Positions 248-11,593 of a DNA stretch of 14,388 nt are shown piece by piece. The notes beneath the pieces were generated by a model. The model was given only the letters and a program-made list of their open reading frames with translations, was not told where the DNA came from and ran no database searches. The DNA is from a virus (Duplodnaviria > Heunggongvirae > Uroviricota > Caudoviricetes): IMG/VR virus record IMGVR_UViG_2693429700_000020; one strand, given 5' to 3'. Each line of letters opens with the position of its first letter. Position 1 is the first letter of the stretch. The position numbers and the translations under genes are program-made.

Positions 248-1723
248 TTAAGCATACGGGTCATAATCTGTGATGGCCTTGCCTTGCTGGTTCTGCTGCC
301 CAGGAATTCGCAGACGCTTCGACACAGGGAACGCAAACGTCAGCAGTAGCGCATCGCCTTTACCCGGCGAACGCCCAAGACGCTCTTTGATATCTTCCTT
401 CGGTTCGATAACGATTTTACCGTCCACACGAACTTTGTACTCTGCCGCCGACAGGTCGTCTGCTGTTTCCTGGTCATCCAGCATGCCGCCCAGCCTCAGC
501 CATGTCTTGCATGAATTGAACATCTCCCCACGCTTGTTGAGCATCTGCGGGTCAGTAGACGCGCCACCGAACGGAACAAGTTGCCATGTACGACCCCATC
601 CGTCACCGATTGACTTCAGACCGGTTCCGTAACCGAAGTCGATGAACACCGCGTCAGCCTGGTACTGGTCTTCAAAGTCAGCGATACGCTTCGCCATAAT
701 CAGATCGTCGGTGGTCTTGTTACCAGTCCATAGCACCTTACTGTGCAGCCCCTGCCGCAGGTATATCACCGCGTCATCAACGCCTGAGTATGCCGGGTCA
801 ACGCCGATTATCACCGGAGCATGTGCAACCTGCGCAGCGGTTACCACCCGTTTCATTGCCTCATCAGTAAGACCGGTAGGGATAAACTGCAATTCAGATG
901 CATCAGGGAATATGCCGCGCACACGGATTTTAACGAAGTCGCTGTCTTCCCCGTAGTCATCAACCCATTTCAGCAACTGCTGTTTGTTAGTGCCTTCCAC
1001 CGTCCGGCTGTCAATCTGCGCACACTTCCAGCGGTGTTTGTACTTGCGGAAACATTCACGGAAACGCCCGGTGTTACGCGTCGGGTTCCCGAACGCCACC
1101 CAGATGATTTCGGTGTCTTCGTCCGTCAGCGCACCCTCTGCTACCTCCCACACCAGATCGGCAATGTTCGACGCTTCATCGAATACCACGATGATGCGTT
1201 TGCGCTCGTTGTGTAGTCCGGCGAATGCCTCAGTGTTGTGCTCAGACCAGGGGATTGCGTCAGCTCGCCACCGCTTGTCGTGCCCAGGATCATTGCTGTA
1301 CATCGCGGTAGCGGTACAGGTAAACCAGTCTTTCGTGATAGCAAGGTTCGACCACTTGATAATTTCCGGCCAGGTCTTCGTTCGTAGCTGGTTGTCGGTG
1401 TTGGCGGTCACCACGACCTTACAATCCTCGCAGGTGGACATGCCCCAGTTGATCAGCATTGAGATGAATGCGGATTTACCAATACCGTGACCAGAAGCGC
1501 GTGCCAGCATAAGCGGCTGATAGCGCGTCTCTGGATTCTGCAGGTGATCACGTATCTCTCGGAACGCATCAGCCTGCCACTGACGTGGGCCGGTGGCATG
1601 TGCCAGTTCAGTCCCCTCTTCCCCCCACGGGAACGCATAGAGAGCATAGCCAAGCGGATCGTGAGTGAACCCTGCAATATCCTCGATCAACTGCTCTTCA
1701 GGAGATAACGCTGTATCTGTCAC
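248..1723 (-). CDS. terL: Phage terminase large subunit
   Basis: 491-aa ORF with a Walker A-like ARASGHGIGKS motif and terminase ATPase/nuclease-like layout; GTG start at 1723..1721 overlaps the terS stop (GTGA) and has an AGGATGG ribosome-binding site. Confidence 0.88.
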   Translation of the reverse strand: MTDTALSPEEQLIEDIAGFTHDPLGYALYAFPWGEEGTELAHATGPRQWQADAFREIRDHLQNPETRYQPLMLARASGHGIGKSAFISMLINWGMSTCEDCKVVVTANTDNQLRTKTWPEIIKWSNLAITKDWFTCTATAMYSNDPGHDKRWRADAIPWSEHNTEAFAGLHNERKRIIVVFDEASNIADLVWEVAEGALTDEDTEIIWVAFGNPTRNTGRFRECFRKYKHRWKCAQIDSRTVEGTNKQQLLKWVDDYGEDSDFVKIRVRGIFPDASELQFIPTGLTDEAMKRVVTAAQVAHAPVIIGVDPAYSGVDDAVIYLRQGLHSKVLWTGNKTTDDLIMAKRIADFEDQYQADAVFIDFGYGTGLKSIGDGWGRTWQLVPFGGASTDPQMLNKRGEMFNSCKTWLRLGGMLDDQETADDLSAAEYKVRVDGKIVIEPKEDIKERLGRSPGKGDALLLTFAFPVSKRLRIPGQQNQQGKAITDYDPYA

Positions 1724-2316
1724 TGATTACCATCCTGACGTTCTTTGAGTCGCTTCCTGGCTGCCGCTATGCGATCAGCAATTGTCACATTCACATTAAC
1801 ATCCAGGCGTTCTTTGAACGCGTTGACATCAACATGCTTACCAATCAGCTCAAGGTTCTTCACCTTGTCAGGCCATTTAATTTTTTTGAGGATTGTCTCT
1901 ATCGAATCCTCGTTCATGTTCATGATGGTCGATGACAGATCAAAGCCACTAAGCGTAGTGCGCCAGATTTTCGGCCACTCACGGATAGGTTTAAGGCTCC
2001 CATCGTCGTTGAGGATGTCGATCACGTCCATCTGGTCGATCTCCACTAGGCGCATGAGAACGTAATCAGCACTGACGCGCATTCGTTTGTTGCGCTCCTC
2101 CATCAACTCGGCAATCCGTTTTTGAATGCGTTCATCGCGCATCATGACACTGGCTTTAACTGCCGCTGTATTTGGGGAGAATCCTGCGTTAATCGCTGCC
2201 TGAGTCTGGTTTTCAGGCGTTTTGATGTATGACTGGCAATAAGCCTCCTGCATTGCTGTGAGCGGCTTAAATTGCGTTGATTTGCGTTTATAGGTTTTAG
2301 GTTCAGCAGGCATCAT
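1720..2316 (-). CDS. terS: Phage terminase small subunit (Terminase_2-like)
   Basis: Translation from the ATG pair at 2316/2313 (MMPAEPKTYKRK...LTAMQEAYCQSYIKTPENQTQAAINAGFSPNTAAVKASVMMRDERIQKRIAELMEE) matches the recalled small-terminase pattern. The 26 codons upstream in the track ORF are the translation of operator repeats and are not believed to be coding. GGTGG ribosome-binding site before the ATG. Confidence 0.8.
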   Translation of the reverse strand: MMPAEPKTYKRKSTQFKPLTAMQEAYCQSYIKTPENQTQAAINAGFSPNTAAVKASVMMRDERIQKRIAELMEERNKRMRVSADYVLMRLVEIDQMDVIDILNDDGSLKPIREWPKIWRTTLSGFDLSSTIMNMNEDSIETILKKIKWPDKVKNLELIGKHVDVNAFKERLDVNVNVTIADRIAAARKRLKERQDGNQ

Positions 2317-2348
2317 AACCACCGTGGTAATAGTTACCGTTGTGGTAA
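2316..2348. promoter_or_regulatory. Two adjacent operator-like palindromes (TAACC-accgt-GGTAA 2316-2330; TTACC-gttgt-GGTAA 2334-2348) abutting the terS start codon
   Basis: Same 15-bp TTACC-N5-GGTAA palindrome as in the immunity region; centres 18 bp apart; the first overlaps the terS ATG. Confidence 0.6.
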
Positions 2349-2354
2349 TAGTAA

Positions 2355-2386
2355 CATGCAAAATAAAGCCGCCATAGTTGGCGGCA
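2355..2386 (-). terminator. Rho-independent terminator after the 2391-2618 ORF, immediately before the terS operator sites
   Basis: Minus-strand reading gives GCCGCCA-acta-TGGCGGC followed by TTTATTTTG. Confidence 0.65.
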
Positions 2387-2390
2387 GTAT

Positions 2391-2618
2391 TCAAAGTCCA
2401 TCAAATTCATCGTAAAAACTCTCGTCAAGATACCCTTCCCATTTACCGCGAATGAAAATTACATCCTCGCCGCAAGGGTGCTGACTGTCGATAACTATAT
2501 CCCTCCTGGCGCAACCATACTTATGCATGAGAAATTTAACCTCTTTCGGAAAATTTGCTGAGTTATCTCTCATATCTTCAAGGTCGTAGCGTATTTTTGG
2601 CATAACACCTCGTGACAT
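2391..2618 (-). CDS. Hypothetical small protein (70-75 aa); start ambiguous between ATG 2618 and ATG 2603
   Basis: The ATG at 2618..2616 sits at the centre of the GTGACATGTCAC palindrome; the ATG at 2603..2601 is preceded by GAGGTG. No family recognised. Confidence 0.45.
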   Translation of the reverse strand: MSRGVMPKIRYDLEDMRDNSANFPKEVKFLMHKYGCARRDIVIDSQHPCGEDVIFIRGKWEGYLDESFYDEFDGL

Positions 2619-2624
2619 GTCACA
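2601..2624. repeat. Copy 2 of the conserved block with the 12-bp perfect palindrome GTGACATGTCAC (2612-2623)
   Basis: CATAACACCTC-GTGACATGTCACA; overlaps the stop codon of the 2620-2958 gene and the first ATG of the 2391-2618 ORF. Confidence 0.8.
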
Positions 2625-2958
2625 CTATTAATTTCGTTTCATGCCAACCTTTGGTCACCCAGCATTGCGAGTCACCATTACACGGGCATGAATTCACAGG
2701 AACTCTCTCGCCGCACTTACCGCAACGTTTTCTGCTGATCGATTTTATACGCCCGCGCACGCGTGCATCATCCTGGCGGATCAGTAACGCTATATACTCA
2801 CCAAATTCGTAAGGCGCACGCCCGGGGCGACGCGTGGCACAGTTACGCTCCAGCATTTCAATTTCCTGAGCATCAAGCACAATTTCCAGCTTACGCACAC
2901 CAGATGCAGCTTGTCTGGCTCTCTGAGCGGCTTTGCGCTCTGATGCTGATTTAGCCAT
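2620..2958 (-). CDS. Hypothetical basic protein with C-terminal Cys cluster (CGKCG...CPCNG...C), possible zinc-ribbon DNA-binding regulator
   Basis: ATG at 2958..2956 (the track ORF begins one codon earlier at TTG 2961); Lys/Arg-rich N-terminus and CxxC / CxC / C motifs. No confident family assignment. Confidence 0.5.
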   Translation of the reverse strand: MAKSASERKAAQRARQAASGVRKLEIVLDAQEIEMLERNCATRRPGRAPYEFGEYIALLIRQDDARVRGRIKSISRKRCGKCGERVPVNSCPCNGDSQCWVTKGWHETKLIV

Positions 2959-3232
2959 CAATATTTACCTTTATCGCGAACACTTTTACCGGTTTATCAC
3001 CGAAGTGGGGGTGTGTGATTGTTTTCACTTCATATCCTCCATACGGAACATCAATTCTGCAACTGGAGTCGTCGCGCTTCGGATATCCCTTTGTGATAAT
3101 CAGGCGGTCATACTCCCGGAACATAATTCGCTTATTCCAGTAGTCATTACACAGGCGATACTCCTCGGTTTTCTCGCCACGAATCATGGCATCGAAGTAT
3201 TCACCTTTTACGGCAAGTTGCAGGTTAGCCAC
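2951..3232 (-). CDS. ASCH/PUA-like domain protein (DUF3850-like)
   Basis: GTG start at 3232 preceded by AGGAGG; N-terminal LQLAVKGEYFDAMIRGEKTEEYR resembles the ASCH signature as I recall it. Confidence 0.5.
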   Translation of the reverse strand: MANLQLAVKGEYFDAMIRGEKTEEYRLCNDYWNKRIMFREYDRLIITKGYPKRDDSSCRIDVPYGGYEVKTITHPHFGDKPVKVFAIKVNIDG

Positions 3233-3509
3233 GACCTTCCTCCTTTGGCTTGTGAATTTGTATCGTCATGCCGCTTTGAGTGGTGACTACAATGACAGAA
3301 CCAGGCTGAAGGCTGTTAAGATTGAATGCTTCGTAAAACGAATCCAATGCCAGTGCTTTTTTATTCTTTCGGTTCCACCAACGCCATCCCTTGCTACAGG
3401 CTACACTGACAATCCACTGCCCACTCCTGTAAGCCATATAAAACCAGATGAGCAAAACCTGAAGGAAGGCCATCCAGTCAATAATCGTATATTTCGCGAA
3501 GGAGTCCAT
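3225..3509 (-). CDS. Small predicted membrane protein (about 94 aa)
   Basis: ATG at 3509..3507 overlaps the stop of the upstream gene (ATGA-type coupling); hydrophobic segment IIDWMAFLQVLLIWFYMAY. The track ORF 3225-3656 extends further upstream in-frame, but that extension overlaps the preceding gene. Confidence 0.5.
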   Translation of the reverse strand: MDSFAKYTIIDWMAFLQVLLIWFYMAYRSGQWIVSVACSKGWRWWNRKNKKALALDSFYEAFNLNSLQPGSVIVVTTQSGMTIQIHKPKEEGRG

Positions 3510-4309
3510 CAATTCACCTCCTGCGGCGGTTCTGGTAGCGGCATCCAGAACAAGACGTTCCCTAACCACGATAAAGTGCCGTCGCTCAACTCCACGTATT
3601 CCCCTTGTACCTGTCCTGCCATATACTCGCCGTGCTTTGAATAAATTAAAATCCAATCATCTTGAGCGGGCATTCGCTCACTACAGCTTATCCAACCATC
3701 CTGAGTTACCGGAGAGTTGCCATTTACATCGAAGTTTGGCTCTGCGTCCTGAACCAGGAGGATGTAACCATTCTTGGCAGTATCAAGTTCTAACGCCTCG
3801 GTGACGGTGCCGAAATAGCGATTACCTAAATCAGCATCACAAGTGCTTACATCAATGGAAACTTCCATGCCTTCGATTAATTCTGGCAAGTTGTAAGTTT
3901 GGCTTACAGGTTGGCTACCCTGACGCATGGCAGCGTGGCAGGCATCCTCTACGCCCTTAACTGCATCTGCGCAGTAGTTATAGCGATTGCATTCCACTAA
4001 TTTCTGCTTGAAGTTTTCAATTGCTAACTCGATTTCATCCGGCACTACCGGCTCTGGTTGGATAGTGACGTTGGCAAAGGCAGCACGCAAACCGGCCTTA
4101 ATTTCCTCTACTTCATCAGCGCCTAGCGATGAATCTGACAATGCGTGATGGAATGCGTATGCCATGTCGTCGTTTACTGCAACCGGCTCTGCTTCCAGCG
4201 ACGCCAGAGCAATTTCATAAGCACGACGCTCAATATTGTCTCGCACGTCCAGGCTGCCTATGCGCTCTTTGATTTCTTTAATCAGTTCTTTGTCGGTAAA
4301 AGTGGTCAT
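3509..4309 (-). CDS. Ea22-like N-terminal region fused to a DUF551-like C-terminal domain
   Basis: ATG at 4309 with AGGAG ribosome-binding site; N-terminus shares the SLEAEPV motif with the 4585-5061 paralog; C-terminus has WISCSERMP...WMPLPEPP, typical of DUF551 prophage proteins as recalled. Confidence 0.6.
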   Translation of the reverse strand: MTTFTDKELIKEIKERIGSLDVRDNIERRAYEIALASLEAEPVAVNDDMAYAFHHALSDSSLGADEVEEIKAGLRAAFANVTIQPEPVVPDEIELAIENFKQKLVECNRYNYCADAVKGVEDACHAAMRQGSQPVSQTYNLPELIEGMEVSIDVSTCDADLGNRYFGTVTEALELDTAKNGYILLVQDAEPNFDVNGNSPVTQDGWISCSERMPAQDDWILIYSKHGEYMAGQVQGEYVELSDGTLSWLGNVLFWMPLPEPPQEVN

Positions 4310-4319
4310 GTGTTACTCC

Positions 4320-4583
4320 TTAACCCGCAGTGCTTTCAACTGACGAGGGGAATAAAATCGTTTCATCAAATCCGGCATTCATATCATGAACAGCAGCACA
4401 CCAATCCATTGACGAACGATTATCAAGAGCCTCCATGATTTCATCCATGCGGCGTAGGTCATACAGGTAAATGTTTTTATCGCCAATGGTGTAAAAGCCA
4501 ATTTTTTTCGGCGATGGACAGCGATCAAGAACGTCCTGTAAGTCGTTCAACCATGCCCGTTCTTTTTTTGTCAAAGTTGTCAT
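4320..4583 (-). CDS. Hypothetical phage protein (87 aa)
   Basis: ATG at 4583 with AGGAGAG ribosome-binding site; tightly packed in the operon; no family recognised. Confidence 0.5.
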   Translation of the reverse strand: MTTLTKKERAWLNDLQDVLDRCPSPKKIGFYTIGDKNIYLYDLRRMDEIMEALDNRSSMDWCAAVHDMNAGFDETILFPSSVESTAG

Positions 4584-4584
4584 A

Positions 4585-5061
4585 TCACTCTCCTTTGATG
4601 CCTATATTTACAGCCAGGCAAGCTTCTTCGAGCACCCAGTCAACAGCGTCTTTCCACGCACCAGTCCCAACTGGCGGATTCTCATTTTTTACCTGCTCAT
4701 AAAAACGCACCGCTTTAACCAGTCCTTCAGGCACTACAGGTACTGGCAAGGCAGCGTGACAGTAGAGTGGCATAGTTTTGTACAGGGGGGCGCCAGGACT
4801 TCCGTCAACCTGATTCCATTCTTCAACCCAGGCATCAACAACCGCTTTGCTGGTTGATACATGTTCTTCTGAATCTACATTTTGTCCTGATATACAGAAC
4901 ATAACTGGCTCTGCTTCCAGTGATGCGTCCAATACATCAAGCAATGCCAGTACAACCTCCGGCGTAGCCGCAGCATGAAAAGCCTGTAGGTTCTGCCACG
5001 TCGTCTCCTCCTTCGCGACCTCTGCCGCCTCTCGCAGTGCCTGATAGTCAATCTTGCTCAC
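4585..5061 (-). CDS. Ead/Ea22-like family protein
   Basis: GTG start at 5061 with AGGAGG ribosome-binding site; N-terminus MSKIDYQALREAAE... and PEVVLALLDVLD match the recalled Ead/Ea22-like pattern. Confidence 0.6.
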   Translation of the reverse strand: MSKIDYQALREAAEVAKEETTWQNLQAFHAAATPEVVLALLDVLDASLEAEPVMFCISGQNVDSEEHVSTSKAVVDAWVEEWNQVDGSPGAPLYKTMPLYCHAALPVPVVPEGLVKAVRFYEQVKNENPPVGTGAWKDAVDWVLEEACLAVNIGIKGE

Positions 5062-5302
5062 TGGTTGCCTCCTGCTTTTCTGCCTTCAACACCATGCGAG
5101 AACCATCATCCAGCTCCCACGCGATCTCACCACCTTCAGCCATGACCAGTCGCCACACCAATTGAGCAGCCTCATTGGTAACATCACGACCTGGATCATT
5201 GCCAACGCGCATACGTCCACCTTCAACATCGCGCATTTTTGCCAGCATGATAGTTTTTGATAGCGGTGAAAAACCAAGCTGTAGTCGTGCTGAATTACTC
5301 AC
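5048..5302 (-). CDS. Hypothetical phage protein (84 aa)
   Basis: GTG start at 5302 with the same AGGAGGCAACCAGTGAG initiation region as the 4585-5061 gene; overlaps the neighbouring stop. Confidence 0.45.
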   Translation of the reverse strand: MSNSARLQLGFSPLSKTIMLAKMRDVEGGRMRVGNDPGRDVTNEAAQLVWRLVMAEGGEIAWELDDGSRMVLKAEKQEATSEQD

Positions 5303-5832
5303 TGGTTGCCTCCTTTGCGAAGCTCAGCGGCGAAGGCTACTGCGTGATCATGATGTTCAAGTGTGTATGCGCACTCAGCAAACATCTCCACGCCCTGCGC
5401 TCGTACTTCAGCCAGGAAAGCGTCGGTGGCTGGGGTGTCTGATTGCAGAGACTTTGCGCGATAGTCATTCCACCCTCTTGCATACATGGGATTAACTTGC
5501 ACTCCATCTTTTACGCAATATGCCTGCCCTCCACGGTTGATAACCTTGATTTCGTCCATAGCGCCAGACTTCAGCCCCGCATTCTCCGCCGCCAGCGCTG
5601 AAAACTTCTCGTGTGCCAACTTAACAGCTGCATCAGCCTGCTTAATTGACTCAATCGCTTTCTGCTGGTCTTCGGCCAGCGCATTAGCACGCACCAGTTG
5701 CACTTCCAGTTGCGTTGCCAAATCGCTGATCAGCTTTGCCACACTACGCATATCAACGGCACCACATTCTGCTTTCAGTTCCGAAGCCATCTCATGCCCG
5801 GCGGAAACTAACCCTTTGATATTACTTTCCAT
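5299..5832 (-). CDS. Coiled-coil phage protein, possibly Ea22-like
   Basis: ATG at 5832 with GAGGG ribosome-binding site; Ala/Glu/Lys-rich helical N-terminal half plus a globular C-terminal half. Confidence 0.45.
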   Translation of the reverse strand: MESNIKGLVSAGHEMASELKAECGAVDMRSVAKLISDLATQLEVQLVRANALAEDQQKAIESIKQADAAVKLAHEKFSALAAENAGLKSGAMDEIKVINRGGQAYCVKDGVQVNPMYARGWNDYRAKSLQSDTPATDAFLAEVRAQGVEMFAECAYTLEHHDHAVAFAAELRKGGNQ

Positions 5833-5893: not shown

Positions 5894-6238
5894 TCAGAAC
5901 TCTTCGATGTTCCAGCCACCACCTGCTTTCTTTGGTTTAACCGTTACCCCGATGATTCGGAACGGATATTGATCTGCGGCGACTTTGGTTTTCACCCTGG
6001 CGTCGTCGGTCCAGAAACCTTTCACTTCGTGCAGTTCCATCTCGCCGGTGGCGAGCATCACAGCAAAATCGGGCGTATAGAACGTGTTGTCAGCTAACCG
6101 CAGCTTGAGACCCTCGAATCGATACCAGGCGATTTCCCCTGCACGTTTACGCTGCTCAAGGTGCTGGCAATACGCAGATTCTGTTTTGTTCATCTGGCCT
6201 GTTTTGAGTCGACCAAGAGCCTGTATCTGTTTTCTCAT
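5894..6238 (-). CDS. DUF1064-like protein (PD-(D/E)xK-like fold)
   Basis: ATG at 6238; motifs TPDF ... ELHEVKG fit the DUF1064 pattern as recalled; first gene after the internal operator-flanked promoter. Confidence 0.55.
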   Translation of the reverse strand: MRKQIQALGRLKTGQMNKTESAYCQHLEQRKRAGEIAWYRFEGLKLRLADNTFYTPDFAVMLATGEMELHEVKGFWTDDARVKTKVAADQYPFRIIGVTVKPKKAGGGWNIEEF

Positions 6239-6241
6239 GAT

Positions 6242-6318
6242 TTACCCCTGAGGTAATTAAAAACCACATAAGACACGAAATCAATAGATTTTAGTATATT
6301 TTATTACCCACCAGGTAA
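6242..6318 (-). promoter_or_regulatory. Internal promoter flanked by two perfect operators (TTACCCCTGAGGTAA 6242-6256; TTACCCACCAGGTAA 6304-6318)
   Basis: Minus-strand -35 TTGATT (6284..6279), 17-bp spacer, -10 TTTAAT (6261..6256); operator centres 62 bp apart, the same geometry as the early promoter at 9347-9423. Confidence 0.6.
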
Positions 6319-6355: not shown

Positions 6356-7141
6356 TTACTTGATAAATCCTGCCGCCTTTCCCCGCCTGTATTCCTCCAT
6401 CAGCCACTGTGCCGGTGTTATTCCACCCAGGGTGGCGGCGTTAGGCATGCACCCGAAACTTCGCCCTGGCGGGTGGTAAACGTCTCTCCCTGTGTCCGGA
6501 GGCGTACTCATGGGTTCTGGCTTTGCCTGTATGCTGATCACCGGATCGGGTATCTGCTGTCCGGAAGCCACCTTTTTCGCCCAATCATCGAGCAACCTGC
6601 GCGCGTGTTTCTCAACCTCAATCTCGCTAAGCTGGCGCTGATACATTGCGCGGCGGGTATCACATACAACCCAGTACATAACCGGATGCCGCCACGGGAA
6701 TCTTTCGGGACCGCCAGGATATAAACTTTTTTCCTTGCTGTACCGGTGAAACTCCGCCATCACATCGTCAATGGTGACACCAAGAACCATCTTGCTGTCT
6801 TTGCACCACTTGATAAATTGCCCAGGCGACGGCCAGAACGGAGATTCACTGGCGCGGGCGTGGCGCATACCAGCAGAAACCTGTTCACGGGTTCGGATCC
6901 CACCTTCGGCAAACGCAGCAATCCACTGCTGTTTTGCAGCGACTTCCTGCTCTGGCGTCTTCAGGTTGGTTACCACTGCCGCCGGAAACAGTTGTTTCAG
7001 CTGTTTGAAAAGGGCATCAACAAGCCTCTCTGCTGACATGTTCACCACATTGTCATTGTTGACGTACTGATGCTCATAACCTGACATGCGAGAAAGGGCT
7101 TCTCCGTCACGGTTTTGTATCGCGGTAAAAACGTTGTTCAC
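6356..7141 (-). CDS. Lambda P-like replication protein (helicase loader)
   Basis: KQQWIAAFAEGGIRTREQVSAGMRHARASESPFWPSPGQFIKWC parallels the lambda P segment RRQWVLAFRENGITTMEQVNAGMRVARRQNRPFLPSPGQFVAWC (recalled). Likely GTG start at 7141 with GGGAGGA ribosome-binding site, overlapping the O-like stop (GTGA). Confidence 0.85.
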   Translation of the reverse strand: MNNVFTAIQNRDGEALSRMSGYEHQYVNNDNVVNMSAERLVDALFKQLKQLFPAAVVTNLKTPEQEVAAKQQWIAAFAEGGIRTREQVSAGMRHARASESPFWPSPGQFIKWCKDSKMVLGVTIDDVMAEFHRYSKEKSLYPGGPERFPWRHPVMYWVVCDTRRAMYQRQLSEIEVEKHARRLLDDWAKKVASGQQIPDPVISIQAKPEPMSTPPDTGRDVYHPPGRSFGCMPNAATLGGITPAQWLMEEYRRGKAAGFIK

Positions 7142-7953
7142 AAGAAATCCTCCCACGCTTCAGGGCTGTTCCAGTGCGGAACGTTGTTATCAGGTAATGT
7201 TGATTGCTTCTGTCTGCTAATCTGCAGCCGCCTTGCCAGCTTCTGCTCCCACTGTGCCTGATGGTATGCCTTACCCTCAGCCATCCAGTAAATTCTGAAT
7301 TCTGCAAGTTCCTGTGCCGTTGGCAGACTGTCCAGGTAGATTCCCTGCAATGAGCTTTTCCGAAGAAAGTCATCTGATGGTTGCCATTGTTCATGCATGA
7401 CAAATTTGCCTAATTGCCCTGGCCCACCAGGAGGAACAAAGTTATTCATCACGGCGTTGTTTGCGCCGGGGTCATGAGGCACAGAATCCCCGGTTTTTGT
7501 CCTGCTCTCCCTCTCTTGGTTAAATGACTGGTTATATGACTGGTTCTGGATCCCGTTTTTGGGATCATTCAACATCCCGTTTTTGGGATCATTCAACATC
7601 CCGTTTTTGGGTATATTCCCGTTTTCGGGAACATTACCGTTTTCGGGTTCATTACACCCTTCCCGGTTGCCTTTAATGTTCCCGTTTTTGGTTATATTAA
7701 GAGAGAAAACCCGCACTCTTTTCGTCGCTCCCTTTCTCTCTCCGGTATCTGAAATAAGCCCCATTTTCATGAGCGATATAAGCCCGGACTGCACGGTTTT
7801 TTTATTCAGGCAAGTGTCTTTAACGAGGCGTTCTATGCTGGGGTAGCAGAGGTTATATTCATCGGCTCTGTCAGCCATCGAGAGCAGTATGAGCTTTAAT
7901 GATGAGCTACCTGGGTCTGTCTCCCAGGCCCAATCTGTTGCATGTCTGCTCAT
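7138..7953 (-). CDS. Replication initiator (O-like): N-terminal helix-turn-helix domain, repeat-encoded low-complexity linker, C-terminal domain
   Basis: ATG at 7953 with GGAG ribosome-binding site; sits directly upstream of the P-like gene; contains the iteron array, as lambda O contains ori. Confidence 0.7.
   Translation of the reverse strand: MSRHATDWAWETDPGSSSLKLILLSMADRADEYNLCYPSIERLVKDTCLNKKTVQSGLISLMKMGLISDTGERKGATKRVRVFSLNITKNGNIKGNREGCNEPENGNVPENGNIPKNGMLNDPKNGMLNDPKNGIQNQSYNQSFNQERESRTKTGDSVPHDPGANNAVMNNFVPPGGPGQLGKFVMHEQWQPSDDFLRKSSLQGIYLDSLPTAQELAEFRIYWMAEGKAYHQAQWEQKLARRLQISRQKQSTLPDNNVPHWNSPEAWEDFL
7552..7692. repeat. Iteron-like direct repeats (candidate replication origin) inside the O-like gene
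   Basis: CCCGTTTT(T/C)GGG core at 7552, 7576, 7600, 7618, about 7636 and 7681 (periods 24, 24, 18, 18); two exact 24-bp units CCCGTTTTTGGGATCATTCAACAT; a second short repeat ATGACTGGTT at 7525 and 7537. Confidence 0.7.
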
Positions 7954-8319: not shown

Positions 8320-8550
8320 TCATGAGTAGAAGAAGTATGCCAGTTCTGCTTTTGAGCGCAGCCATTGTCTTGTTTTACAGGCTTTAAAAAGCCCATTCAT
8401 CAATACTTTACCTGGCATTTTGCGCTTACCTGTTAAGTGAGTCTGGATATAGTGACTCGTCGTTCCGGCTTCCTGTGCGAAGGCTTCACGCTCATCCGGA
8501 GTAAGTGCAAGCCAGTGCTTTTTGAAATCGAAATGTCCGTTATCGCTCAT
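8320..8550 (-). CDS. Cro-like small helix-turn-helix DNA-binding protein
   Basis: 76 aa; first gene of the minus-strand operon, divergent from the repressor; candidate HTH at AFAQEAGTTSHYIQTHLTGKR. Confidence 0.5.
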   Translation of the reverse strand: MSDNGHFDFKKHWLALTPDEREAFAQEAGTTSHYIQTHLTGKRKMPGKVLMNGLFKACKTRQWLRSKAELAYFFYS

Positions 8551-8586: not shown

Positions 8587-8649
8587 TCACCCATAAGGTA
8601 ACAAAAATCAAGGATAGTTACCTATGGGGTGCATTTACCTGTTGGGTAA
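8587..8649. promoter_or_regulatory. Operator cluster between the Cro-like and repressor genes: TCACCCATAAGGTAA (8587-8601), TTACCTATGGGGTGC (8618-8632), TTACCTGTTGGGTAA (8635-8649)
   Basis: Three copies (one perfect, two near) of the palindrome in the divergent regulatory region; a minus-strand -35 TTGTTA / -10 TATTAT candidate overlaps the first site. Confidence 0.65.
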
Positions 8650-8704: not shown

Positions 8705-9289
8705 ATGAAAAGTATCCAGGACGTCCGCAGGCAAAATCTCAACGACTTGATCGACCGTGAATTCAATGGTGTTCAGACGCGGATGGCAGAAAAACTTGGA
8801 ACTCAGGCAAATCTGGTAAACCGCTGGGCTCTTGGCAAGAAGGTTATCGGCGACCAGGTTGCGCGAAAAATTGAAGCTGCCGCCAATAAACCCCGTAACT
8901 GGCTTGATATCGATCGCTCGCTTTCTCAGGAGGGGTTTCAGCCTGTCGGCCCAAGCGACATTGGTCAGCTGGCGGCTCACAACCTGGAACGCTGGATGAG
9001 CGAAAGCCGCGACCTTTCAACACAGGGAAAACTTCACCGCGCATCCGGCGTCGCCCAGGTGACAATCAGCCGCCTGTTAAACAATGAGGTCAGTGTTTCC
9101 ATTTCCACCCTGGAGAATGTTGCATCCGCATTCGGGCGTCACGGATATGAACTACTGATTCACCCGCATGACCCTGCAACTATCAACTATGACCGCTCGC
9201 GCTACGCATTGTTACCCGAAACCGAGAAAGCAAAGATCGAAAGTTACATTGAATTTGTCATCAACCAGAACGAAAAAAACAAACAATAA
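8705..9289 (+). CDS. Phage repressor (CI-like role) with two XRE-type helix-turn-helix domains and no S24 peptidase domain
   Basis: 194 aa; HTH-like segments QTRMAEKLGTQANLVNRW and LHRASGVAQVTISRLLNN; lies between the two operator regions like lambda cI; weak ribosome-binding site. Confidence 0.7.
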   Translation: MKSIQDVRRQNLNDLIDREFNGVQTRMAEKLGTQANLVNRWALGKKVIGDQVARKIEAAANKPRNWLDIDRSLSQEGFQPVGPSDIGQLAAHNLERWMSESRDLSTQGKLHRASGVAQVTISRLLNNEVSVSISTLENVASAFGRHGYELLIHPHDPATINYDRSRYALLPETEKAKIESYIEFVINQNEKNKQ

Positions 9290-9310
9290 AATCATATTTT
9301 TCAGTAAGTA

Positions 9311-9336
9311 AGCCGCCTTCTGGCGGCTTTTTTATT
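9311..9336 (+). terminator. Strong rho-independent terminator after the repressor gene
   Basis: AGCCGCC-ttct-GGCGGCT followed by TTTTTATT. Confidence 0.8.
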
Positions 9337-9346
9337 GCCTGTTCAA

Positions 9347-9423
9347 TTACCTAATGGGTAATTTTTTTAACTCATATCTATTGACATCAAACCAGATACG
9401 CATAATTATTACCTAAACGGTAA
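9347..9423 (+). promoter_or_regulatory. Early (pL-like) promoter flanked by two perfect operators (TTACCTAATGGGTAA 9347-9361; TTACCTAAACGGTAA 9409-9423)
   Basis: -35 TTGACA at 9381-9386; -10 within CATAATTAT at 9401-9409; operator centres 62 bp apart, the downstream one overlapping the -10 and start-site region. Confidence 0.7.
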
Positions 9424-9442: not shown

Positions 9443-9595
9443 ATGCAGTGGAAAATCATCAACGGTTGGTACTGCGTTACTGCATGCGGATTCATGAGCT
9501 GGAAGTTCCGCACCTTACAGGAAGGCATTAAGTGGGCTTTCGTCAGCAAAGAAGCTCGCGATGTGGCCAACGATAACGAGATATGGGAGGGATGA
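9443..9595 (+). CDS. Small hypothetical protein (50 aa), first gene of the early operon
   Basis: ATG at 9443 with GAGG ribosome-binding site; stop TGA at 9593-9595 sits inside the ribosome-binding region of the next gene. Below the cutoff of the supplied ORF track. Confidence 0.4.
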   Translation: MQWKIINGWYCVTACGFMSWKFRTLQEGIKWAFVSKEARDVANDNEIWEG

Positions 9596-9597
9596 TA

Positions 9598-9897
9598 ATG
9601 AACGTTAATCAGCAGAAAAATCTTCAAAAAATCATGCTGGCATTCGACAAGGACTACCGCCTGTCAGAACAGCTATATGACCGACAAGTTGAACTGATTG
9701 AGAGTATCCGGCTTCACCAACTGGCCTCAACTTTCGACGTTGTAACAGGCAAAGGCGTTCGTCAGGAAGTGCTGGAGGCTGCTAAAGACAGCCCTGAGTT
9801 CGAAGAACTGATGGATGCCTACCGGCGCGAGGCAATGGCAATTATCGCCCGCTGGGATCTGGCTGATCAGCTTGATGGGCAGAGGGACGCGGCATGA
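9598..9897 (+). CDS. Hypothetical early protein (99 aa)
   Basis: ATG at 9598 preceded by GGGAGGG (the track ORF starts at 9583); stop overlaps the exonuclease start (ATGA). No family recognised. Confidence 0.5.
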   Translation: MNVNQQKNLQKIMLAFDKDYRLSEQLYDRQVELIESIRLHQLASTFDVVTGKGVRQEVLEAAKDSPEFEELMDAYRREAMAIIARWDLADQLDGQRDAA

Positions 9898-10715
9898 AGC
9901 CGGGAATTTATTTCGACATCAGCAACGAAGACTACCACGCCGGGGACGGCGTGAGTAAGTCGCAACTGGACATGGTTGCCAAGAATCCGGCGCTTCTTAA
10001 ATGGGTTCAGGCAGCACCAGAAGACGAAGAGAAAAAGTCTGCACTGGATATGGGAACCGCATTGCACTGTCTGCTTCTGGAGCCTGGAGAGTTCGACAAA
10101 CGCTTCATTGTTTCACCGAAATTCGATCGTCGGACGAAACAAGGTAAAGCTGACGAAGAGGCATTTCTTCGTGATGTGGCGGATATGGGGATTACGGTAC
10201 TTGATGCCGAGCAGTGGCGGAAACTGGAGCTGATGCGTGATAGCGCAATGGCTCACCCGGCGGCACGCTGGATGCTGGAAGCACCTGGTTACTGCGAAGC
10301 GTCAATGTACTGGAACGATGAAGAGACTGGTGAGTTGTGCCGAATTCGTCCAGACAAATGGCTGAACGAGCACAACGTGATCGTCGACGTGAAAAAGGTT
10401 GCAGATATGGAGCGTTTTGCACGTCACATCGAGGAATTCCGCTACCACGTGCAGGACGCAATGTACCGCGAAGGCGCAATGAGGGTTACTGGTCAGCCGC
10501 ATGGTTTTTTCTTTCTTGCCGTGAGCGAAAGCATTGATTGTGGTCGGTATCCGGTACGCGTGTTCGAGCTGGATGCGCCGGATGTCGATGCCGGGCACGC
10601 TCTGTTCCGCCGGGATCTGAATACCTATCACGAATGCCGCATCAACGATGAATGGGGCGGAGTGGAAATTATTAAACGTCCTGACTGGGCACGTAAACAG
10701 GATATGTATGTATGA
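9894..10715 (+). CDS. PD-(D/E)xK exonuclease, RecE C-terminal-domain-like (exodeoxyribonuclease VIII family)
   Basis: 273 aa; N-terminus MKPGIYFDISNEDYHAGDGVSKSQL and RIRPD ... IVDVKK catalytic motifs match the recalled RecE nuclease-domain pattern; translationally coupled to the annealing-protein gene. Confidence 0.7.
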   Translation: MKPGIYFDISNEDYHAGDGVSKSQLDMVAKNPALLKWVQAAPEDEEKKSALDMGTALHCLLLEPGEFDKRFIVSPKFDRRTKQGKADEEAFLRDVADMGITVLDAEQWRKLELMRDSAMAHPAARWMLEAPGYCEASMYWNDEETGELCRIRPDKWLNEHNVIVDVKKVADMERFARHIEEFRYHVQDAMYREGAMRVTGQPHGFFFLAVSESIDCGRYPVRVFELDAPDVDAGHALFRRDLNTYHECRINDEWGGVEIIKRPDWARKQDMYV

Positions 10716-11593
10716 GCAATGATATCGCAATCACATCACAACCAGGCGCAACTGTAGGCACTGCTGCGGCAATCTTCAGCCCCGAGGGCATGAATCAACT
10801 GGTGCGTTTCGAGGAGTTGATGTCACAAAGCAAAGCGACTGTACCGAAACATCTTGAAGGCAAACCTGCCGATTGCCTGGCGGTGACCATGCAGGCGGCA
10901 CAGTGGGGAATGAACCCGTTCGCCGTGGCGCAGAAAACGCATGTGGTAAACGGAACGTTAGGCTACGAAGCACAGTTGGTAAACGCGGTCGTATCCTCTT
11001 CCAGCCTGCTGGCGACACGCCTGAATTATCGCTGGAGCGGTGACTGGTCGAATGTTAACGGCAAAACAGATAAATCACCGAATCTGACGGTAACTGTGTC
11101 AGCAGTTCTTAAAGGAGAAGCAGAACCACGTGAGCTTACCATCAGTATGGCGCAAGCCGGAGTGCGTAACTCTCCATTGTGGGAACAGGATCCGCGCCAG
11201 CAGCTCGCCTATCTTTGCACGAAACGATGGGCTCGCCTGCACGCTCCTGATGTACTTCTCGGTGTTTACACCCCTGACGAATTACAGGAAACGGCACCGC
11301 GCGTTGAGCGAGACATTACTCCGCAAATGACTACGGCTGCGGGAATGAACAGTCTGATCAACGCTAAATCAGTGAAAAAGCCTGATGAGCAAACGCGTAA
11401 AGCGGATAGCCGTGAGCCAGAAGAAATGCTGATGGCCTTTACCAGCGCAGCGATGAATTACAGCACTGTCTCCGAACTGGATAAGGCTTACAAATACATT
11501 GCACAAAAACTTTCAGATGATGACGAACTGCTGGCAAAAGCCACCGACGTTTACAGCGTTCGTCGGGAAGAATTAAACGAAACATCTATGTAA
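10712..11593 (+). CDS. RecT/Redbeta-family single-strand annealing protein
   Basis: 293 aa; QWGMNPF ... SPLWEQDPRQQLAYLCTKRWARL parallels the lambda Bet region GPWQSHPKRMLRHKAMIQCARLAF (recalled); sits directly downstream of the exonuclease. Confidence 0.65.
   Translation: MSNDIAITSQPGATVGTAAAIFSPEGMNQLVRFEELMSQSKATVPKHLEGKPADCLAVTMQAAQWGMNPFAVAQKTHVVNGTLGYEAQLVNAVVSSSSLLATRLNYRWSGDWSNVNGKTDKSPNLTVTVSAVLKGEAEPRELTISMAQAGVRNSPLWEQDPRQQLAYLCTKRWARLHAPDVLLGVYTPDELQETAPRVERDITPQMTTAAGMNSLINAKSVKKPDEQTRKADSREPEEMLMAFTSAAMNYSTVSELDKAYKYIAQKLSDDDELLAKATDVYSVRREELNETSM

Follow-up and report, generated by a model that had tools for sequence, protein, structure and literature searches.

The gene at positions 8705–9289 on the plus strand of the DNA analysed here (14,388 nucleotides in full, hereafter the window) very probably codes for the repressor of lysogeny (immunity) in an E. 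coli prophage of the phiV10/epsilon15 type, an orthologue of the Rep repressor of Salmonella phage SPC32H that is controlled by an antirepressor. The open reading frame (rep) was checked in the window and runs from an ATG at 8705 to a stop codon at 9287–9289, encoding 194 amino acids. The identity of Rep, its domain architecture, the absence of an S24 peptidase domain, the predicted operator sites and, in prophages that share this rep, an antirepressor gene (ant) preceded by a LexA box were observed directly.

The Rep sequence was 100% identical to gp40 of phiV10 and to ORF21 ("repressor") of phage vB_EcoP_ZX5 (ZX5), and about a dozen further Uetakevirus records contained a protein 100% identical to it. 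The GenBank record of phiV10 gp40 already carries the note "two helix-turn-helix motifs". Gp38 of epsilon15 is grouped with phiV10 gp40 and ZX5 ORF21 as a Uetakevirus repressor. Over-expression of ZX5 ORF21 abolished free phage and lowered the mRNA of holin and endolysin by 99.97–99.99% (PMC9782041). At the nucleotide level, the rep region was 97–98% identical to those of phiV10, TL-2011b, ZX5 and others and 100% identical to that of a prophage of E. coli Z1323CEC0019 (locus L003; the SPC32H genome is locus L002), and it was found in 540 of 5426 complete E. coli genomes. A PDB sequence search (phmmer) matched residues 1–190 of Rep to 5d50_A, "Repressor", as a full-length match (E=4e-42), and the C-terminal fragment 5d4z_A was matched as well. 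The sequence of 5d50_A is the translation of the annotated rep gene of SPC32H (KC911856), to which the window Rep was 42% identical in BLASTP (E=2e-53). When the AlphaFold2 model of Rep was searched with Foldseek, the 12 best matches were all 5d50 or 5d4z, "Rep-Ant complex from Salmonella-temperate phage". The label "VapI antidote", found in the record of phage BP9, was given no weight in view of the repressor context and the 5d50 homology.

The surroundings of rep agree with those of its relatives. The gene order int, recET, rep, divergent cro-like gene and replication genes is common to the window, phiV10 and SPC32H. The cro-like gene (8320–8550, minus strand, 76 amino acids), divergent from rep, matched phrog_35, transcriptional repressor (E=5e-12), and corresponds to phiV10 gp41 and epsilon15 gp39. 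An intrinsic terminator, also annotated in phiV10, follows rep at 9310–9337 (plus strand). The window belongs to a prophage of the phiV10/epsilon15-like kind (genus Uetakevirus); compared with the phiV10 and ZX5 prophages, it represents a mosaic variant in the downstream accessory genes, while its Rep protein shows no difference. The complete E. coli genome with the best whole-window match covered 86–87% of the window at 98.4% identity, and none of the complete genomes covered all of it. The first ~150 bases (1–155) lie outside the best-match alignments listed for complete E. coli genomes. The accessory block at ~2400–5800, between the replication genes and the small terminase gene (terS), is not collinear with L003 and is ~1.4 kb longer in the window.

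The preliminary description had proposed tandem XRE-type helix-turn-helix (HTH) domains in this 194-residue protein, and the domain search and the structure prediction both bore this out. Pfam HTH_3 (PF01381) matched Rep with 38.5 bits (E=1.2e-9; gathering cutoff 23 bits) over two stretches, the better of which covered residues 106–147, and residues 21–61 gave weak Cro/YdaS-type HTH matches (E=3e-4) below the cutoff. The two HTH folds lie at residues ~20–61 and ~106–147. Repressor families of PHROGs matched both halves of the protein, with phrog_5736 and phrog_12107 on residues 1–76 and phrog_13326 on 98–191, and phrog_8 extended over 10–186. The AlphaFold2 model, built with 30 homologues, had a mean pLDDT of 78 and consisted of two helical bundles joined by a disordered linker (74–83), with helix-turn-helix pairs at 24–31/35–42 and 107–114/118–125. 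Foldseek aligned the C-terminal two modules of Rep with 5d4z at a TMt of 0.74; confidence was low for the C-terminal domain, which was modelled as a monomer.

Three modules can be delimited in Rep. The N-terminal HTH domain (residues 1–72, positions 8705–8920, plus strand) was modelled with a pLDDT of 85–92 and carries a net charge of +5; its recognition helix lies at about residues 35–42 (ANLVNRWA). The second XRE/HTH_3 fold (residues 85–155, positions 8957–9169, plus strand), matched by both HTH_3 and 5d4z, has a net charge of about 0 as a domain, and the HTH helices of both domains are positively charged. Gln107, Gln118 and Arg123 of the second HTH are invariant among Rep homologues, and these positions contact DNA in 434-type HTHs. 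The C-terminal ~39 residues (156–194, positions 9170–9286, plus strand) could be aligned with 5d50_A and 5d4z_A as far as residue 190. Identity to SPC32H Rep was 53%, 31% and 51% in the N-terminal, middle and C-terminal domains, respectively.

The structure of SPC32H Rep was reportedly solved both alone (PDB 5d4z) and together with Ant (5d50), in work ascribed to Kim & Ryu, J Virol 2013, and Kim et al., PNAS 2016. PMC9986798, which cites the crystal-structure study, divides this protein into three domains: one for DNA binding at the N-terminus, one for dimerisation in the middle (MDD) and one at the C-terminus (CAD, with a p53-like "TetDloop") that makes tetramers and binds the antirepressor Ant. 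According to PMC9986798 and PMC9638917, which also cites that study, DNA is bound by the SPC32H Rep tetramer, with paired N-terminal domains drawn from different dimers. By homology, residues 1–72, 85–155 and 156–194 of the window Rep would likewise serve as DNA-binding domain, MDD and CAD (tetramerisation and Ant binding), at an identity to the solved homologue of 42% overall and 31% in the dimerisation domain. Tetramerisation, DNA binding in trans and binding of Ant by the window Rep are likewise suggested by the SPC32H homologue.

Many lambdoid E. coli prophage repressors work by RecA-stimulated self-cleavage. The preliminary description had noted no S24 (LexA/CI-type) region in Rep, and this held up in the sensitive domain search: neither Peptidase_S24 nor another cleavage domain was found in Rep at E<=10 in Pfam and NCBIfam, or in PHROGs at permissive thresholds. 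Self-cleaving LexA/CI repressors are characterised by a Peptidase_S24 domain at the C-terminus, with its Ser/Lys dyad and Ala-Gly cleavage site; Rep gave no match to this domain, and the S24 Pfam domain occurred in 0 of the 86 Rep homologues obtained from a search of 5.8 billion proteins. It is conceivable that Rep is a classical CI/LexA-type repressor whose RecA-stimulated self-cleavage depends on a divergent, unrecognised peptidase region, but its probability is negligible: besides the lack of any S24 match in Rep itself and in every member of the family, the chain continues for only ~40 residues beyond the second HTH, and this tail aligns with the beta-alpha element for tetramerisation in 5d4z. 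The C-terminal ~39 residues are not a peptidase. Because Rep carries no S24 domain, its SOS cleavage is not expected, and analogy with the homologue leads to the same expectation for RecA-dependent cleavage.

A palindrome, TTACC-N5-GGTAA (usually ATTACC-N5-GGTAAT), recurs in the window at six perfect sites, against 0.01 expected. From their position and statistics, these sites are predicted to be bound by Rep. The right-hand predicted operator cluster (8587–8649), between rep and the cro-like gene, contains one perfect site (8635–8649) and two imperfect ones (8587–8601, one mismatch; 8618–8632, two mismatches). The site at 8587–8601 sits between the -35 and -10 elements of a leftward, cro-side promoter-like site (8604–8576). 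In SPC32H, three sites are found in the same arrangement (L002 34390, 34407 and 34437). The left-hand control module (9347–9423, plus strand) consists of two perfect predicted operators, 9347–9361 and 9409–9423, around a promoter-like site with TTGACA at 9381, a 17-nt spacer and AATTAT ending at 9409, which faces the early operon starting at 9443. This pair, which the preliminary description had placed 62 bp apart, is real, and it recurs with the same spacing in L003 (7519/7581) and SPC32H (33604/33666). A second operator-promoter-operator module (6242–6318, minus strand), with perfect sites at 6242–6256 and 6304–6318, again 62 bp apart, lies upstream of a DUF1064 gene (5894–6238, minus strand) and is kept in L003 (10600/10662) and SPC32H (35972/36034). 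Two adjacent operator-like sites (2316–2348), one with a single mismatch (2316–2330) and one perfect (2334–2348), lie immediately upstream of the point where the small terminase gene probably begins; SPC32H has a site before terS as well (L002 12–26). The same half-site in SPC32H fits the conserved NLVNRW recognition helix and the 53% identity of the N-terminal domains, compared with 31% for the MDD. Sites 62 bp apart are separated by about six turns of the helix and would lie on one face of the DNA, as a tetramer with two pairs of heads would need.

The palindrome also spreads beyond the immunity region, with 13 perfect copies in L003 and 10 in SPC32H. The copies in L003 precede int, the early-left operon, the cro side, DUF1064, terS, the portal operon, accessory (moron) genes, ant and the lysis genes, and one perfect or near-perfect palindrome precedes the ant LexA box by ~55 bp. 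This prophage-wide spread suggests control by one protein.

The preliminary description had further supposed that a single Rep chain could use both of its HTHs on DNA, reading one half-site with each or bridging operators 62 bp apart. Its second domain is indeed a bona fide HTH_3 fold (E=1.2e-9), with Q107, Q118 and R123 invariant in helix 2 and helix 3 and a net charge of +3 on its helices, and the operators are palindromic and paired. However, the counterpart of this domain in SPC32H is described as a dimerisation domain, and it is the N-terminal domains of the tetramer that bind DNA, according to PMC9638917 and PMC9986798. A perfect palindrome implies identical heads, whereas the HTHs within one Rep chain have different sequences. 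The second domain is also the least conserved (31%) although the TTACC half-site is common with SPC32H, while the N-terminal domain with its NLVNRW helix is 53% identical, and a linker of ~12 residues would not be able to span 62 bp, or about 210 Angstrom. The role of the MDD, the need for identical heads, the conservation pattern and the linker length leave this arrangement without support, and we regard it as very unlikely. DNA recognition by paired N-terminal domains within a tetramer is the preferred reading.

Induction driven by an antirepressor, which the preliminary description had offered in place of self-cleavage, was supported by the homology to SPC32H Rep and by ant genes with LexA boxes in relatives with identical Rep. 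The antirepressor gene was located in those relatives and not within the window itself: tblastn gave no Ant or BRO-N homologue in the window below E=1, and no antirepressor family of PHROGs was matched by ten of its small ORFs. A perfect LexA box was likewise absent from the window, where matches with one mismatch occurred only at chance frequency, none of them AT-rich or promoter-placed. The window extends from the integrase to the large terminase gene, and the ant locus of the relatives falls outside this extent. In the L003 prophage, the Ant ORF (37224–37481, minus strand) encodes 85 amino acids, is 87% identical to SPC32H Ant and matched 5d50_E, "Anti-repressor protein" (E=1.4e-46). Its ATG is preceded, at ~20 bp, by a LexA box that is perfect and AT-rich and reads CTGTATATTTATACAG on the ant strand. 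ZX5, a phage with identical Rep, has an equivalent LexA box before ant in the same arrangement, and SPC32H has the box CTGTATGTTTATACAG at the same place. The ant gene of SPC32H (L002 19676–19936, 86 amino acids) adjoins the tailspike gene, far from rep, and the Ant locus in phages with identical Rep adjoins a tail-fibre gene.

Rep and Ant also occur together. Ant homologues turned up in 35 phage records, which coincide almost entirely with the 36 that contain a full-length Rep, and phiV10 carries one. The ant region was present in 529 of the 5426 complete E. coli genomes, compared with 540 for the rep region, and strain MINF_2E, the best whole-window match, has both. From these relatives, the element from which the window derives probably carries ant. 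The record of ZX5 labels the small Ant only "hypothetical". Conservation between the E. coli and Salmonella phages is asymmetric, Ant being 87% identical and Rep only 42%. In PMC7380047, a review of Salmonella prophages that cites Kim & Ryu 2013, the SPC32H-type system is described as one in which self-cleavage of LexA allows the antirepressor to be made, and the repressor is then inhibited by protein-protein contact. PMC9638917 reports that Ant of this type acts by breaking up the Rep tetramer.

A further family of Ant-like proteins was observed in phiV10-like E. coli prophages. These BRO-N proteins, one of which is ORF4 of ZX5, are encoded at 33432–34142 and 36225–36911 of L003 and at 1078–1773 of another locus, L004 (all minus strand); their C-terminal ~75 residues are 41–43% identical to the small SPC32H-type Ant, and they look like BRO-N/Ant fusions. 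A gene for a YafO-family toxin (L003 32585–33130, minus strand) lies among the accessory (moron) genes of this related prophage, with the structural genes on one side and the BRO-N/ant cluster on the other. Induction might proceed mainly through these larger antirepressors rather than the small LexA-controlled Ant, with a trigger that need not be SOS. Over-expression of ORF4 of ZX5 (BRO-N, "anti-repressor"), residues 150–223 of which are 43% identical to the small Ant, lowered the prophage titre from 1e9 to 1e6 and rep mRNA by 75% (PMC9782041), and L003 contains two such genes; the genes have no LexA box and have TTACC-N5-GGTAA sites nearby. Over-expression of ORF4, however, does not address natural induction. 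In addition, phiV10, with an identical Rep, has only one Ant-like place and appears to be without fusion genes, which suggests that these are accessory. Conservation of the small Ant, together with its LexA box, extends over relatives from Salmonella, Escherichia, Enterobacter and Klebsiella. A main role of the BRO-N proteins in induction is therefore highly unlikely, and the small LexA-controlled Ant is preferred. A broader scheme, in which the second HTH, through its invariant Gln107, Gln118 and Arg123, makes auxiliary DNA contacts, the Rep tetramer acts as a prophage-wide silencer or looping factor and the BRO-N/Ant-like proteins supply LexA-independent inputs, seems rather unlikely.

Under the proposed mechanism, the N-terminal HTH of Rep (about 1–72) would bind DNA, the XRE-fold HTH (about 85–155) would act as the dimerisation module, and the C-terminal element (about 156–194) would join two dimers into a tetramer and serve as the place where the antirepressor docks. 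The tetramer would present its N-terminal domains, as two pairs, to the 15–17-bp palindromes ATTACC-N5-GGTAAT. One group of these palindromes overlaps the promoter on the cro side, and pairs spaced by 62 bp flank two further promoter-like sites; lytic transcription would thereby be kept off. By homology, the tetramer may bridge the paired operators 62 bp apart. During the SOS response, self-cleavage of LexA would de-repress the small antirepressor gene ant (85 amino acids), which is expected beside the tail-fibre gene, beyond the window and at a distance of about 28 kb from rep. Ant would then bind Rep, break the tetramer and free Rep from DNA.

Among known systems, SPC32H is the closest. Its Rep has the same length, three-module layout and gene neighbourhood as the window Rep, the same TTACC-N5-GGTAA half-site and 62-bp pairs, and its cognate small Ant, to which that of the relatives is 87% identical, likewise lies behind a LexA box beside a tail-fibre or tailspike gene. 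The two differ in that the divergence of Rep is concentrated in its dimerisation domain (31% identity), the five bases at the centre of the operators have a lower A/T content here, and the E. coli relatives add BRO-N proteins with an Ant-like C-terminal domain. With lambda CI, P22 C2 and LexA, Rep has in common the N-terminal Cro/CI-type HTH, divergent rep/cro genes, multiple operators and a link to SOS, but it has no S24 domain, and the SOS signal would arrive indirectly through a LexA-repressed antirepressor. Tum of coliphage 186 and the Gifsy/Fels-2 antirepressors follow the same logic, from self-cleavage of LexA through an antirepressor to non-covalent inactivation of the repressor, as stated in PMC7380047. 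The likeness is drawn at this level of logic. Ant of the SPC32H type is reported to break a tetramer. Rco of plasmid pLS20 and SinR-type regulators combine an N-terminal XRE HTH and a C-terminal beta-alpha tetramerisation element with DNA looping and a partner antagonist, as PMC9986798 describes, but Rep has an extra middle dimerisation domain of HTH fold. SinR and SinI were among the weak fold matches of the Rep model in Foldseek.

The Rep protein, its two HTH motifs, its repressor role and the antirepressor mechanism of the family were already public between 2005 and 2022, and the value of the present assignment is practical, for annotation, and little as discovery. RefSeq names rep "helix-turn-helix domain-containing protein" and the small ant "hypothetical protein", and the two regions are each present in about 10% of complete E. 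coli genomes. Transfer of the SPC32H Rep/Ant annotation would mark such prophages as probably SOS-inducible through LexA and Ant.

Other genes of the window were also inspected. For the small terminase (1720–2394, minus strand), the longest ORF has 224 amino acids and a TTG start, and RefSeq annotates the same for L003. This ORF opens with an odd stretch of 27 residues (…TITTTVTITTVV…) that overlaps two operator-like palindromes. In SPC32H, terS encodes 197 amino acids, and the true start of the window gene is probably an ATG near 2313. The RecE-like nuclease (9894–10715) and RecT (10712–11593), both on the plus strand, are separate, overlapping ORFs in the window and in L003, and the phiV10 record gives a single recET fusion CDS. 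The DnaT-like gene (7138–7953, minus strand), for a replication/primosomal protein, contains at ~7530–7690 a short tandem peptide repeat, PENGN/PKNGMLND (…NEPENGNVPENGNIPKNGMLNDPKNGMLNDPKNG…), and its annotated length is 828 nt in phiV10, 792 nt in L003 and 816 nt in the ORF list of the window.
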